A DNA stretch of 64,000 nt, from assembly GCF_044647545.1 (NCBI RefSeq), contig NZ_CP172818.1. The stretch is one strand, 5' to 3'. Shown piece by piece: positions 10,929 to 63,389 of this stretch. The stretch is from Escherichia coli. GTDB lineage: Bacteria; Pseudomonadota; Gammaproteobacteria; Enterobacterales; Enterobacteriaceae. The translations under genes were made by a program, and so were the position numbers. Each line of letters opens with the position of its first letter. The first letter of the stretch is position 1. Under the pieces are notes generated by a model, which was not told the origin of the DNA, ran no database searches, and saw only the letters and a program-made list of their open reading frames with translations.

Positions 10929-11028
10929 ATGACCGGATAAAGAACTGGTTACGTCGCTCCTTCATCTTCTTTAACTCTTACAAAACCCAAAGAATTCTTC
11001 ACCTTTCATTTCCCTATTCTTTTTCTCC

Positions 11029-11094
<66 letters not shown>

Positions 11095-11105
11095 ATCAAA
11101 AAAAA

Positions 11106-12330: not shown

Positions 12331-13542
12331 TTATTCTCCTTGCGGCGCGGCTGCCGGAGTATCAGCTTGCGGTGCAGGTGCAGGTGCAGGTGCAGGTGCA
12401 GGTGCAGGTGCAGGTTTAGCTTCCGTTGTCCCTGCTGCCGGTTGTGCCAGCAGGTTACGCACGCGGGTCTGCATCAATTTTTCCAGCATCGCCTGGCTTT
12501 GCAGGGTTTCCGGGAGATCCATCGAGATATTTTGCTGGCTTAACTGGTCCACCTCGTCGAGGAACGCTTTGGTGGTGGCATCATCAGTATCGTAGTAAGC
12601 ACGTACCCAAGTGGAGACATTCTCCAGCGCCTGGCGATAAGTCTCTTCCTGATGACGCGGTACAGCTTGTGCAGCGACCAGCAGGCGAGAGCGAATATTT
12701 TCGCGCAGATAGATATCCTGATTTGGCGCTAACAGCGGTACGGCGGTGTCATCACGACGGCGAATCGTAATGAAGTTGTCCATAAAGTTCTGCCAGCTTT
12801 TTTGCAGATTGATACGCCATTCGCTGATGGAACTGGAAAGCTCTTCACCGTCGGAATCCATCGGCGAACCATCGCTGTCATTATCAGCCAGACGCAGGTT
12901 ATCTACCTGATTTGAAAGCTGATTAAGCTTAAGGATAATGCCGTCATAATCCACCTGCGATACCGCAGAAAGGCTGGCGATATCATCGGTAATTGCCCGG
13001 CGAACGGTAATCAGACTCGGGTCATTCATATCCGCCAGGCTGGCGTCTGCACTTTTCAGCAACGCTGCAGCGGTCGTGACGTCCTGATCGCTCCACAGCT
13101 TCCGTCCGGCGAGTTTCACCAGGAAATCAGCCTGAGCCAGCAGCCAGGTTTTAGCATCGCTGCCGGAAATAGTCGCGACCTTTTGTTGGACTTCATCCAG
13201 CTGTTTTGCCAGCGTTTCTTGCTGACGATTCGCCTGCTCAAGCTGTACAGCTTGTTGCTTGATAATGCCTTCCAGCTCAGCTTTTTGGCTCTCCTGGGCT
13301 TTTTGCAGTGCCGTCAGCTGATTAGCCAGGGCATCGCTGGTGGCAGTCTGATTGACGGCCTGTTGTTTACCCCAGCCATACAAACCGACGCCCGCCGCCA
13401 GAGCAATAGCGATAGCCACCGCGCTGAGAATCAATGCGGTATTGTTCTTACTCTTTTTTTCTGTTGCGACAGGTTGTGACGTGGTGTCCACGGCCTCCCT
13501 GGTCTCTTCAACCACGGCGGAGGTTTTTTCTTGTTCCGTCAT
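12331..13542 (-). CDS. hemX: HemX membrane protein with C-terminal Pro-Ala repeat
   Basis: 403-aa ORF; coiled-coil-rich sequence; ends with [19 protein letters not shown] encoded by the hexanucleotide repeat at 12371..12415. Confidence 0.9.
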
Positions 13543-38293: not shown

Positions 38294-40555
38294 ATGACAA
38301 TTCTTAATCACACCCTCGGTTTCCCTCGCGTTGGCCTGCGTCGCGAGCTGAAAAAAGCGCAAGAGAGTTATTGGGCGGGGAACTCCACGCGTGAAGAACT
38401 GCTGGCGGTAGGGCGTGAACTGCGTGCTCGTCACTGGGATCAACAAAAGCAAGCAGGTATCGACCTGCTGCCGGTGGGTGATTTTGCCTGGTACGATCAT
38501 GTCCTGACCACCAGCCTGCTGCTGGGTAACGTTCCGGCGCGTCACCAGAACAAAGATGGTTCGGTAGATATCGACACCCTGTTCCGTATTGGTCGTGGAC
38601 GTGCGCCGACTGGCGAACCTGCGGCGGCGGCGGAAATGACCAAATGGTTTAACACCAACTATCACTACATGGTGCCGGAGTTCGTTAAAGGCCAACAGTT
38701 CAAACTGACCTGGACGCAGCTGCTGGAGGAAGTGGACGAGGCGCTGGCGCTGGGCCACAAGGTGAAACCTGTGCTGCTGGGGCCGGTTACCTGGCTGTGG
38801 CTGGGTAAAGTGAAAGGTGAACAGTTTGATCGCCTGAGCCTGCTGAACGACATTCTGCCGGTTTATCAGCAAGTGCTGGCAGAACTGGCAAAACGCGGCA
38901 TCGAGTGGGTACAGATCGACGAACCCGCGCTGGTACTGGAACTACCGCAGGCGTGGCTGGACGCCTATAAACCCGCTTACGACGCGCTCCAGGGGCAGGT
39001 GAAACTGCTGCTGACTACTTATTTTGAAGGCGTAACACCAAATCTCGACACGATTACTGCGCTGCCTGTTCAGGGGCTGCATGTGGACCTTGTACATGGT
39101 AAAGATGACGTTGCTGAACTGCACAAGCGCCTGCCTTCTGACTGGCTACTGTCTGTGGGTCTGATCAATGGTCGTAACGTCTGGCGCGCCGATCTTACCG
39201 AGAAATATGCGCAAATTAAGGACATTGTCGGCAAACGTGATTTGTGGGTGGCATCTTCCTGCTCACTGCTGCACAGCCCCATCGACCTGAGCGTGGAAAC
39301 GCGTCTTGATGCAGAAGTGAAAAGCTGGTTTGCCTTCGCCCTACAAAAATGCCATGAACTGGCACTGCTGCGCGATGCGCTGAACAGTGGTGATACGGCG
39401 GCTCTGGCAGAGTGGAGCGCTCCGATTCAGGCGCGTCGTCACTCTACTCGTGTACATAATCCGGCAGTAGAAAAGCGTCTGGCGGCGATCACCGCTCAGG
39501 ACAGTCAGCGTGCGAATGTCTATGAAGTGCGTGCTGAAGCCCAGCGTGCGCGTTTTAAACTGCCCGCGTGGCCGACCACCACGATTGGTTCCTTCCCGCA
39601 AACTACGGAGATTCGTACCCTGCGTCTGGATTTTAAAAAGGGTAATCTCGACGCCAATAACTACCGCACGGGCATTGCGGAACATATCAAGCAGGCCATT
39701 GTTGAGCAGGAACGTTTGGGACTGGATGTGCTGGTACATGGCGAGGCCGAGCGTAATGACATGGTGGAATACTTTGGCGAGCATCTGGATGGCTTTGTCT
39801 TTACGCAAAACGGTTGGGTACAGAGCTACGGTTCCCGCTGCGTGAAGCCACCGATTGTTATTGGTGACGTTAGCCGCCCGGCACCGATTACTGTGGAGTG
39901 GGCAAAATATGCGCAATCCCTGACTGATAAACCGGTGAAAGGGATGTTGACCGGCCCGGTGACTATTCTCTGCTGGTCGTTCCCGCGTGAAGATGTCAGC
40001 CGTGAAACCATCGCCAAACAAATTGCGCTGGCGCTGCGTGATGAAGTGGCCGATCTGGAAGCCGCTGGAATTGGCATCATCCAGATTGACGAACCGGCTC
40101 TGCGCGAAGGTTTACCGCTGCGTCGCAGCGACTGGGATGTGTATCTCCAGTGGGGCGTAGAGGCCTTCCGTATCAACGCCGCCGTGGCGAAAGATGACAC
40201 ACAAATCCACACTCACATGTGTTATTGCGAGTTCAACGACATCATGGATTCCATTGCGGCGCTGGACGCAGACGTCATCACCATCGAAACCTCGCGTTCC
40301 GACATGGAGTTGCTGGAGTCGTTTGAAGAGTTTGATTATCCAAATGAAATCGGTCCTGGCGTCTATGACATTCACTCGCCAAACGTACCGAGCGTGGAAT
40401 GGATTGAAGCCTTGCTGAAGAAAGCGGCAAAACGCATTCCGGCAGAGCGTCTGTGGGTCAACCCGGACTGTGGCCTGAAAACGCGCGGCTGGCCAGAAAC
40501 CCGCGCGGCACTGGCGAACATGGTGCAGGCGGCGCAGAATTTGCGTCGGGGGTAA
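38294..40555 (+). CDS. metE: cobalamin-independent methionine synthase
   Basis: 753-aa [33 protein letters not shown]...; divergent from metR. Confidence 0.95.
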
Positions 40556-40565
40556 ATCCCAAACT

Positions 40566-40594
40566 GGGTGGCAAACACCACCCGGTCTTTTCTC
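40566..40594 (+). terminator. terminator hairpin between convergent metE and ysgA
   Basis: gggtgg-caaaca-ccaccc stem-loop followed by ggtcttttctc. Confidence 0.5.
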
Positions 40595-40595
40595 A

Positions 40596-41411
40596 TTACA
40601 GCGACTTCTTCCCACCATACTGTGTAAACCATTCCAACATTCGCTGCCAGCCGTCTTTCGCAGACTCGGCATGATAGCTCGGACGATAATCGGCGTTGAA
40701 CGCATGCCCGGCATCCGGGTAGACGATAATCTCTGCTTTCGCGTTTGCTGCCCGCAGCGCCTGGCGCATCGTTTCAACGCTCTCCTGCGGAATGCTGTTA
40801 TCCTGGCCGCCATATAAGCCGATAACCGGCGCGTTAAGATCGGTTGCGATATCAACAGGCTGTTTCGGTGAATTCAGCGTCTTATCGCCGGTTAATTTGC
40901 CGTACCATGCCACCGCTGCTTTCAGTTGTGGATTATGCGCAGCATACAGCCAGGTGATGCGCCCACCCCAGCAAAATCCGGTGATCATTAAGCGATGAAC
41001 ATCGCCGCCGTTGCGTGACGCCCAACTGGCGACATGATCGAGATCGGCCAGCACCTGCGAGTCAGGCACTTTTGCTACCAGACCGCTAAGCAGCGTAGGG
41101 ATATCGGCAAAATCATTCGGATCGCCTTCGCGGAAGTAAAGTTCAGGTGCGATAGCCAGATACCCCTCCAGCGCCAGACGGCGACAAATATCGCGGATAT
41201 GTTCATGCACGCCAAAAATTTCCTGCACTACAATGACCACTGGCAGTGGGCCATCGCTTTGCTTTGGTCTGGCATGGTAAGCAGGCATGTTATCCCCTTG
41301 TGAAGGGATAGAGGTGAAGCCCGCCACAATCGCGTCGTCCGGAGTCTGAACGATGGTCGAAGCGAGAGGCGATGCAGCAGGTGCAAATCCAGATTGTTGT
41401 GTTGTTGCCAT
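40596..41411 (-). CDS. ysgA: dienelactone-hydrolase-family protein
   Basis: 271 aa from ATG at 41411 ([16 protein letters not shown]...). Confidence 0.85.
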
Positions 41412-41672: not shown

Positions 41673-42515
41673 ATGTCCAAGTCTGATGTTTTTCATCTCG
41701 GCCTCACTAAAAACGATTTACAAGGGGCTACGCTTGCCATCGTCCCTGGCGACCCGGATCGTGTGGAAAAGATCGCCGCGCTGATGGATAAGCCGGTTAA
41801 GCTGGCATCTCATCGCGAATTCACCACCTGGCGTGCAGAGCTGGATGGTAAACCTGTTATCGTCTGCTCTACCGGTATCGGCGGCCCGTCTACCTCTATT
41901 GCTGTTGAAGAGCTGGCACAGCTGGGCATTCGCACCTTCCTGCGTATCGGTACAACGGGCGCTATTCAGCCGCATATTAATGTGGGTGATGTCCTGGTTA
42001 CCACGGCGTCTGTTCGTCTGGACGGCGCGAGCCTGCACTTCGCACCGCTGGAATTCCCGGCTGTCGCTGATTTCGAATGTACGACTGCGCTGGTTGAAGC
42101 GGCGAAGTCAATTGGTGCCACCACTCACGTTGGTGTGACGGCTTCTTCTGATACCTTCTACCCGGGTCAGGAACGTTACGATACTTACTCTGGTCGCGTA
42201 GTTCGTCACTTTAAAGGTTCTATGGAAGAGTGGCAGGCGATGGGCGTAATGAACTATGAAATGGAATCTGCAACCCTGCTGACCATGTGTGCAAGTCAGG
42301 GCCTGCGTGCCGGTATGGTAGCGGGGGTTATCGTTAACCGCACCCAGCAAGAGATCCCGAATGCTGAGACGATGAAACAAACCGAAAGCCATGCGGTGAA
42401 AATCGTGGTGGAAGCGGCGCGTCGTCTGCTGAAATTCTCTTTCTCCTGTCAGCCCTGGGTGAAGGCATCCCATCTTCATCTCCAGGATGCATTCACCGAA
42501 ATCGAATCGGGATAA
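41673..42515 (+). CDS. udp: uridine phosphorylase with a 27-codon C-terminal extension in this sequence
   Basis: [40 protein letters not shown]...; codons 1-253 end in ...VEAARRLL as recalled for K-12 Udp, but codon 254 is AAA and the frame continues to 42515. Confidence 0.85.
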
Positions 42516-43700
42516 AACATCAAATAACTCCCCTCATAAATCTGGAAATCTAATTTTTTTTCAACTACTGCCCATTTCGCATTTGCCGGTAACCTATCAC
42601 ATGCATACCCTGATGGATCGCGTTTTCAGGCCGGTTCCATCGACACACCTGAATTTTTTCTCTTCGCCACGCATCACTTCGGCATTTCACCTTCTTTAAT
42701 CACCCAGCATGATTCAGCATTTCTCTCTGTGATAACACGTCAACTGCTTCGCCAGACCCTCGAATGACCGCAAGGTAAATAACTGCTGTTGCCACCCTTC
42801 GCACTCCGACATCCGCAAGCCATACCGCATGGGTTTTCGACCATCCCGCAGACACGTAAAACGTATCTGGAAACTCCTCACGTTTCTCCTGGAGGTAATT
42901 TCATGATCCCCAGAATTCACGTTTTTCTTTGATCTTGATTCGCCAAAACGCCATGCCCGAACGATGACTTCCCCATCCAGGATTAAATCTAAGTTCTGCA
43001 TTATCTTTCCTTTAATCATTTTATTTATCTTTCGGACGTCTTACCCCACCCATTCACGGATATCTCTTCTGCACAGGATTTGACGAAGTGCCACTTCAAC
43101 CCCACGACATATACTGTACTCGACAGAAATACCGCCACAATTTCATCCCGCTTGTAAACCCTCAACGCAACGGATATCGGCTCTTTCCTTCCAATCAAAA
43201 CAAAACCACTCCAAACGACGCATGTTCTAATAAAGCGCCCATTTTGTTTCATCACCACAGGCTTTACCGCCACTTTCTTCTTTCGTTAGATCAATCCTCC
43301 GATCCGTGATTCCATCATCGATCCTCTGACGCATTTCCACCCCCTGACTTTGATCTTCTCCAGATACAGCACTTCTCGCCTTCAACGATCCCCAGATGCA
43401 CGGTTCCAGTTAACCAACGTTCAAAACCGCAATTTTACACGAGTCTTTCCATCTCTCACTGAATCGATCATTTCACCCATTTACCCTCGTGACACGCAGT
43501 AACTTTTCCACAAACTGACTAAACATGTTTCTCCTCGTCCTGAACTCCCGATAATTTTAGTCACACGTTATAAACACATTAAGAACCGCCATCCACGTAA
43601 TAACGTTTCCGCCTCGTGTTGAAGAGGTTTCTCCCACTCACTTCTCTATGATATTCTGAATTTCCACATAATGACGTGGGGAAAAAGTGATATATCCCAC
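42516..43700. other. G-depleted (+ strand), ORF-free tract of about 1.2 kb between udp and rmuC
   Basis: about 13% G against about 30% C in sampled 60-nt lines; only short ORFs without recognisable protein features; right boundary approximate. Confidence 0.8.
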
Positions 43701-43842
43701 AATATAAACCCATCTCATATTGTGGATAAATAATGAAAATTAACATTTTTGCGTAGCGCCTCGCAGGAAACTTCTTTCAAACTGGACGTTTGTACAGCAC
43801 AATTCTATTTTGTGCGGGTAAGTTGTTGCGTCAGGAGGCGTT

Positions 43843-45270
43843 GTGGATTTCTCAATCATGGTTTACGCAGTTATTGCATTGGTGGGTGTGGCAATTGGCT
43901 GGCTGTTTGCCAGTTATCAACATGCGCAGCAAAAAGCCGAGCAATTAGCTGAACGTGAAGAGATGGTCGCGGAGTTAAGCGCGGCAAAACAACAAATTAC
44001 TCAAAGCGAGCACTGGCGCGCTGAGTGCGAGTTACTCAATAACGAAGTGCGCAGCCTGCAAAGTATTAACACCTCTCTGGAGGCCGATCTGCGTGAAGTA
44101 ACCACGCGGATGGAAGCTGCACAGCAACATGCTGACGATAAAATTCGCCAGATGATTAACAGCGAGCAGCGCCTCAGTGAGCAGTTTGAAAACCTCGCCA
44201 ACCGTATTTTTGAGCACAGCAATCGCCGGGTTGATGAGCAAAACCGTCAGAGCCTGAACAGCCTGTTGTCGCCGCTACGTGAACAACTGGACGGTTTCCG
44301 CCGTCAGGTCCAGGACAGCTTTGGTAAAGAAGCCCAAGAACGTCATACCCTGACTCACGAAATCCGCAACCTCCAGCAACTCAACGCCCAGATGGCCCAG
44401 GAAGCGATCAACCTGACGCGTGCGCTGAAAGGCGACAATAAAACCCAGGGCAACTGGGGCGAGGTAGTATTGACGCGGGTGCTGGAGGCTTCCGGTCTGC
44501 GTGAAGGGTATGAATATGAAACCCAGGTCAGCATCGAAAATGACGCCCGCTCGCGGATGCAGCCGGATGTCATCGTGCGGTTGCCGCAGGGAAAAGATGT
44601 GGTGATCGACGCCAAAATGACGCTGGTCGCCTATGAACGCTATTTCAACGCTGAAGATGACTACACACGTGAAAGCGCGCTACAGGAGCATATCGCGTCG
44701 GTGCGTAACCACATCCGCTTGCTTGGACGCAAAGATTATCAACAGTTGCCGGGGCTGCGAACCCTGGATTACGTGCTGATGTTTATCCCCGTTGAGCCAG
44801 CATTTTTATTGGCACTGGATCGCCAGCCGGAGCTGATCACCGAAGCGTTGAAAAACAATATCATGCTGGTTAGCCCGACTACGCTGCTGGTGGCGCTGCG
44901 CACTATCGCCAACCTGTGGCGTTATGAGCATCAAAGCCGCAACGCCCAGCAAATCGCCGATCGTGCCAGCAAGCTGTACGACAAGATGCGTTTGTTCATC
45001 GATGACATGTCCGCGATTGGTCAAAGTCTCGACAAAGCGCAGGATAACTATCGCCAGGCAATGAAAAAACTCTCTTCAGGTCGCGGAAATGTGCTGGCGC
45101 AGGCAGAAGCGTTTCGCGGTTTAGGGGTAGAAATTAAACGCGAGATTAATCCGGATTTGGCTGAACAGGCGGTGAGCCAGGATGAAGAGTATCGACTTCG
45201 GTCGGTTCCGGAGCAACCGAATGATGAAGCTTATCAACGCGATGATGAATATAATCAGCAGTCGCGCTAG
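43843..45270 (+). CDS. rmuC: DNA recombination protein RmuC
   Basis: 475-aa ORF from GTG 43843 (MDFSIMVYAVIALVGVAIGWLFA...), coiled-coil rich. Confidence 0.9.
   Translation: MDFSIMVYAVIALVGVAIGWLFASYQHAQQKAEQLAEREEMVAELSAAKQQITQSEHWRAECELLNNEVRSLQSINTSLEADLREVTTRMEAAQQHADDKIRQMINSEQRLSEQFENLANRIFEHSNRRVDEQNRQSLNSLLSPLREQLDGFRRQVQDSFGKEAQERHTLTHEIRNLQQLNAQMAQEAINLTRALKGDNKTQGNWGEVVLTRVLEASGLREGYEYETQVSIENDARSRMQPDVIVRLPQGKDVVIDAKMTLVAYERYFNAEDDYTRESALQEHIASVRNHIRLLGRKDYQQLPGLRTLDYVLMFIPVEPAFLLALDRQPELITEALKNNIMLVSPTTLLVALRTIANLWRYEHQSRNAQQIADRASKLYDKMRLFIDDMSAIGQSLDKAQDNYRQAMKKLSSGRGNVLAQAEAFRGLGVEIKREINPDLAEQAVSQDEEYRLRSVPEQPNDEAYQRDDEYNQQSR

Positions 45271-61847: not shown

Positions 61848-63389
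<1,542 letters not shown>

Follow-up and report, generated by a model that had tools for sequence, protein, structure and literature searches.

A G-depleted stretch between udp and rmuC in an Escherichia coli assembly, probably an artefactual copy of a known islet

Introduction

An islet of ~5 kb with six ORFs, located between udp and rmuC, has already been described in APEC O1 (PMC3349570). In ExPEC and phylogroup B2/D/F E. coli, this six-ORF islet measures ~5-5.6 kb. In the ST648 genome NZ_CP008697.1, it occupies 5.6 kb between the two genes, and all of its genes lie on the minus strand (RefSeq annotation of the islet, for example NZ_CP008697.1 103435-108874). These genes encode a TctCBA-type transporter, a DgoA-like aldolase, a DgoK-like kinase and an IclR regulator. 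Of 5426 complete E. coli genomes, 1456 carry the islet. Across genomes the islet segment is either wholly present or wholly absent, and in 1438 of 1457 genomes it is at least 99% conserved.

Two further kinds of known system are relevant for comparison. Low-quality or reference-guided draft assemblies are generally known to carry local damage in accessory DNA while the surrounding core is perfect, together with homopolymer junk, collapsed repeats and chimeric junctions that are confined to a single record. Cryptogenes, as in kinetoplastid U-insertion and Physarum C-insertion, are genes that need insertional RNA editing.

The window analysed here is a stretch of 64,000 nucleotides from the E. 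coli contig NZ_CP172818.1 (assembly GCF_044647545.1), in which G-poor DNA lies between udp and rmuC. Comparison with related genomes indicates, with a rough probability of 0.9, that this G-poor stretch is a corrupted copy of the islet that arose technically, in sequencing or assembly, the assembly being of low quality and probably reference-guided.

Results and Discussion

Composition and extent of the G-poor stretch

The base makeup of positions 42432-43700 is A 25.8%, C 30.7%, G 14.3% and T 29.2%, giving a GC skew of -0.366. The windowed GC-skew check proposed in the original prediction identified the stretch as an outlier, with a z of -5.9 relative to the other 1269-nt segments of the same length (mean +0.03, sd 0.067). 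Each 60-nt line of the stretch contains on average 8.6 G (range 4-13) versus 18.4 C (range 13-26). The longest stop-free run is 108 codons and the listed ORFs do not exceed 101 aa, so the description of this DNA as G-poor, strand-asymmetric and free of long ORFs was borne out. The spacing of about 140 bp given for K-12 was also correct: udp stops at 4017192 in K-12 MG1655, with rmuC beginning at 4017333, so that the gap is 140 bp, compared with ~1.4 kb here. Normal composition had been thought to resume near 43670, which does not hold, as G deletions continue beyond that point. The altered zone extends from 42436 to 43746, the position of the final G deletion.

Homology to the udp-rmuC islet

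A megablast search against the 5426 complete E. coli genomes matched the stretch to the IclR and kinase genes located between udp and rmuC in 1455 genomes, with 81.8% identity over 1596 bp. In the annotation these features are named 'IclR family transcriptional regulator' and '2-dehydro-3-deoxygalactonokinase'. In a global alignment, positions 42436-43746 are colinear with NZ_CP008697.1 107413-108995 (ST648), which is the right-hand 1.58 kb of the islet. The stretch shares both locus and orientation with the islet, being located between udp and rmuC with its genes opposite in strand to both. Over this right-hand part the correspondence is base for base, and ~95% of the non-G positions are intact. 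The overall identity is only 81.8-83.5% because of the G deletions, versus at least 95% and mostly at least 99% among natural copies.

The stretch also differs from the islet in several respects. The left 4 kb (NZ_CP008697.1 103399-107413) is absent, 53% of the plus-strand G's are deleted, and island-less-type sequence is present at the left junction. None of the six islet ORFs is intact, as the 4-kb part is missing and both the IclR and the kinase frames are broken. As judged from the alignment, what the stretch presents is the known islet in corrupted and truncated form, not a genetic element in its own right. A naturally truncated islet was considered as its precursor and rejected, since neither a truncated nor an intermediate form occurs among the 5426 complete genomes.

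The features of the locus are listed in Table 1.

Table 1. Features between udp and rmuC in the window and their counterparts in reference genomes
Feature	Position	Strand	Remarks
udp (uridine phosphorylase)	41673..42431	+	Normal sequence, 99.8% identical to ST648 udp
Island-less-type sequence AAATTCTCTTTCTCCTGTC, one extra T	42432..42450	+	Matches K-12 TAATTCTCTTCTCCTGTC and Z1323CEC0014 AAATTCTCTTCTCCTGTC
DgoK-like (2-dehydro-3-deoxygalactonokinase) remnant	42446..43001	-	Codons 1 to ~223 of 334; aligns with NZ_CP008697.1 107413-108083
IclR-family regulator remnant	43021..43639	-	Full extent; aligns with NZ_CP008697.1 108107-108874
IclR gene upstream region and islet right end	43640..43746	.	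G deletions at a lower rate; last at 43746
rmuC	43843..45270	+	Normal sequence

The udp gene lacks its stop codon, reading CTGCTG-AAA in place of CTGCTG-TAA, and the ORF therefore extends to 42515, 27 codons into the corrupted DNA. The AAAT ending of udp is also natural in the island-bearing ST648 and in the island-less strain Z1323CEC0014. In the latter (locus L007, 2540-2570), the same udp ending CTGCTGAAAT, found at 42429-42434 of the window, is accompanied by loss of the stop and a udp of 780 nt. The loss of the K-12 stop codon is thus not itself part of the artefact.

Directly after udp, ST648 reads AAATAAAAAACGC, without AAATTCTCTTTCTCCTGTC, and the ST648-type islet-bearing genomes likewise lack AAATTCTCTTTCTCCTGTC. 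The island-less-type sequence at the left junction of the stretch amounts to 15-19 nt, and its segment in Table 1 is the chimeric junction at the end of udp.

Further to the right, the final third of the DgoK-like gene is absent from its remnant, together with the 4 kb on the left of that gene, which would contain the aldolase and the tctCBA-like transporter. A tblastn search with the kinase covered residues 13-224, with only 29% identity and with frame changes. The IclR-family gene is 768 bp long in ST648 and 619 bp here, and its tblastn fragments are spread over frames -1, -2 and -3. Reading frames in both remnants have been destroyed by the plus-strand G deletions. From 43760 rightward, the window is 100.0% identical to ST648-type genomes (11,241/11,241 bases).

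A minus-strand mini-ORF of 17 codons starting at 43526, preceded by an AGGAG, sits within the IclR remnant, where ST648 reads ...CCCGGAGCACAACCCATCG... The original prediction had allowed that this AGGAG may be chance. That suspicion stands and extends to the start codon, as the ATG and the AGGAG both arise from deletions and the mini-ORF is therefore a chance product.

Deletion signature

In the global alignment with ST648, the plus strand has lost 225 of its 422 G's, and a further 12 G's are substituted. The 1161 A, C and T positions show only 52 deletions and 8 substitutions. The totals are 277 deletions, 5 insertions and ~20 substitutions, and 225 of the 277 deletions (81%) are G's on one strand. 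The loss of these G's from islet genes accounts for the G-poverty of the stretch, its missing ORFs and its unrecognisable peptides.

The loss of G depends strongly on the neighbouring bases (chi-square test, p = 4e-7 on the 5' side and p = 1e-8 on the 3' side). The proportion of G's kept is 0/16 in AGT, 4/24 in AGC and 5/25 in TGT, compared with 18/20 in CGA and 21/26 in TGA. Uniform random deletion of G is rejected by this neighbour dependence. The loss is independent of codon phase, non-coding DNA is equally affected, and a runs test found no clustering of G loss along the stretch. The neighbour dependence, together with the lack of codon phase and the involvement of non-coding DNA, points to a chemical, physical or base-calling effect rather than to selection. 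Depurination and modified bases were set aside as causes, as A is hardly touched and only accessory DNA shows the effect.

This signature bears on whether the stretch could be real DNA, namely an islet remnant that decayed naturally and eroded into pseudogenes after a 4-kb deletion. Natural decay proceeds mostly by substitutions and is not base-specific. Here, deletions far outnumber substitutions and most of them remove one base from one strand; we know of no mutational process with such a deletion spectrum. Islet homology at the correct locus and short microhomologies at the left junction (CTGTC, TGAAGGC) are consistent with natural decay, which we nevertheless regard as very unlikely in view of the deletion spectrum, of the flanks and genome survey described next, and of the A55 run and the C/T homopolymer smears elsewhere in the window.

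Flanks and occurrence in other genomes

ST648-type genomes with an intact islet match the flanks of the stretch at 99.8-100% identity and with zero indels. Since the flanks are nearly identical to ST648 and free of indels, there has been no evolutionary time for 277 indels to accumulate in between. A decayed pseudogene would be expected to show a substitution-dominated spectrum with comparable divergence in its flanks, and neither was found. Nor is the altered form shared by related isolates or linked to the intact islet by intermediates, as a megablast search recovered the identical G-depleted version in 0 of the 5426 complete E. coli genomes. A 42-mer of the stretch had 0 matches in GTDB representative genomes (100,044 species) or in JGI metagenome contigs. 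The 280-aa Udp protein extended by the stretch occurs on exactly one contig (NCBI) among ~15 billion proteins. The altered sequence thus occurs in one record only and in none of the independent data searched, as is typical of an artefact.

The original prediction had proposed that finding the same sequence between udp and rmuC in reference genomes would mark it as ordinary intergenic DNA. The outcome is mixed: the sequence itself was found in none of the 5426 genomes, and a homologous intact islet occupies the exact site in 1456 of them.

Among the options originally raised was a genuine insertion with a long non-coding RNA, and a functional strand-asymmetric element of another kind was considered alongside it. 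Composition bias and the absence of ORFs are the only features in favour of such an insertion. The covariance-model scan that had been suggested yielded no Rfam match for the stretch at E<=1. Folding stability of a 300-nt sample showed no excess over shuffled sequences (z of +0.82 on one strand and +0.39 on the other), and promoter and terminator scans of the stretch returned matches at chance level. The stretch thus shows none of these marks of a structured RNA. It is conserved nowhere that was searched, and its sequence is fully explained as protein-coding islet DNA from which G's have been deleted. We consider an RNA-bearing insertion exceedingly improbable.

Other damaged sites in the window

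Two further corrupted stretches were observed in the window. The first (10962-11105), located between glmZ and hemY, starts out as an ST648 hypothetical-protein gene (NZ_CP008697.1 60263-60833) minus its G's and then passes into ~55 A's. Its 144 bp stand for 572 bp of real sequence, and the sequence is perfect again at the hemY terminator. The second (24715-25650) comprises ~900 degraded bases in register with an ST648 gene of the SAM hydrolase/halogenase family, which is absent from K-12. Its first errors are G deletions and G substitutions. These are followed by homopolymer smears (C10-12, A9-13, T20+) with GC skew down to -0.65, and recovery is abrupt at the yigE stop, the end of the SAM-hydrolase gene. 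All three corrupted stretches lie in DNA that is absent from K-12, and each ends where backbone homology resumes. Outside them, only about ten differences from ST648 were found in 60 kb. The record thus combines an error signature of non-biological character with further damage elsewhere.

Three islands of ST648 are missing from the window, at 27739/27593, 33733-33782 and 40552-40603. The corresponding ST648 islands are NZ_CP008697.1 77512-79077, 85216-86256 (Rpn-family gene) and 93024-101568 (8.5 kb, metE-ysgA). They are replaced by junctions of the island-less type, with no donor SNPs alongside. No complete genome combining these flanks with these junctions was found, the best full-length match being 97.4%, and the metE-ysgA junction had no match above 94.3% in 4113 complete genomes. 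Such island-less junctions lacking flanking SNPs suggest a chimeric, reference-guided reconstruction.

At the 3' end of corA (27593-27739), the window is a position-by-position mosaic of the two 147-nt repeat copies of ST648, and the conserved CorA motif YGMNF is changed to DGMNF. This mosaic looks like the consensus of a collapsed repeat.

Origin of the stretch

The deletion of over half of one strand's G's from ordinary accessory genes points almost certainly to a sequencing or assembly artefact. On the sequence evidence we infer a technical rather than a biological cause. The record looks like an ST648-like isolate reconstructed on an island-less backbone, probably by a reference- or backbone-guided procedure. 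DNA shared with the backbone would have been recovered essentially perfectly, and DNA absent from it would have been lost or garbled, the garbled parts being weakly supported sequence with missing G calls. A technical process during sequencing, consensus calling or assembly would have dropped ~53% of the G's on the deposited strand, and the same process would have skipped the left 4 kb of the islet. The chromosome of the real strain most likely carries the intact 5.6-kb islet. The suggestion of a misassembled or chimeric contig made in the original prediction was essentially right, as a corrupted islet copy is joined to island-less-type sequence and other damage lies nearby. Of the three options raised there, the others being synthetic filler and an RNA-carrying insertion, it alone is supported. 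K-12 MG1655 was rejected as the literal backbone, since neither K-12 nor any complete genome has the empty-site junctions of the window.

The window resembles draft-assembly artefacts in its damaged accessory DNA within perfect core, its homopolymer junk, collapsed repeat and chimeric junctions, and its restriction to one record. It differs from them in that we could assign a one-base, one-strand and neighbour-dependent deletion of this strength to no specific platform or program. Sanger tails, 454/Ion flows, a dim PacBio channel and nanopore were each considered, and none fits all three stretches. No single Sanger, 454 or Illumina read tail would be as long as the G-poor stretch. This stretch is contiguous with its right flank and the other two stretches degrade from left to right, so no single read-tail model fits all three. 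To our knowledge, no standard platform loses over half of a single base across 1.3 kb and keeps ~95% of the other bases.

An in-silico or other non-biological alteration, such as a consensus bug dropping one base code, a lossy model-based reconstruction or deliberate editing, is a plausible sub-type of artefact that needs no sequencing chemistry. It agrees with the shortage of G that all three corrupted stretches show on the deposited plus strand, with the left-to-right degradation of two of them and their abrupt recovery where backbone homology resumes, and with junction sequences that match no natural genome exactly. However, the trinucleotide context dependence is unlike a simple 'skip G' bug or a uniform random deletion, non-G errors of ~5% occur as well, and the record is in NCBI rather than planted in the window. 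On balance, we hold this specific origin to be rather unlikely.

All three corrupted genes lie on the minus strand, and G loss on the deposited strand is therefore inseparable from C loss on the coding strand. This leaves a biological reading in which an unknown process strips coding-strand C's (template G's) from horizontally acquired genes. If true, this would amount to a scrambling or silencing of accessory DNA, or to cryptogenes restored by insertional editing, and it would cover all three G-depleted accessory stretches in the window. The likeness to edited cryptogenes is an analogy only: in both, the DNA is short of one nucleotide relative to the functional message and is hence strand-asymmetric. 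In contrast to edited cryptogenes, the losses here also affect non-coding DNA and follow no codon phase, intact versions of these genes exist in near-clonal relatives, and the neighbouring junk argues for a technical cause. We know of no insertional editing machinery in bacteria, and the probability that we assign to such a process is close to negligible.

Implications for the use of the assembly

With an artefact as the preferred reading, the stretch is not a real feature or a new element, and the islet that it derives from is already known. Its value is that of a quality flag, indicating that in the source assembly accessory DNA is garbled, islands are missing and junctions are chimeric. Any use of this assembly for gene content, for pseudogene calls (such as the 'extended' Udp or a CorA with a broken YGMNF) or for pangenome statistics would give wrong results. 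Other assemblies can easily be screened for the G-dropout signature, a skew of about -0.4 restricted to accessory DNA. There is no biological novelty unless the sequence is confirmed from the isolate.

Minor observations

In a protein collection clustered at 90% identity, the extended Udp is placed under an RmuC representative (485 aa), a peculiarity of that database rather than of the window. At 12374, in hemX, the window shows a 24-bp difference from ST648 in a CAGGTG tandem repeat, which may reflect natural variation in repeat number or an assembly collapse. In the 16S rRNA, the window has A where the ST648 rrn copy has G at three positions (62105-62106 and 62883); these differences may represent heterogeneity between rrn operons or a multi-copy consensus.
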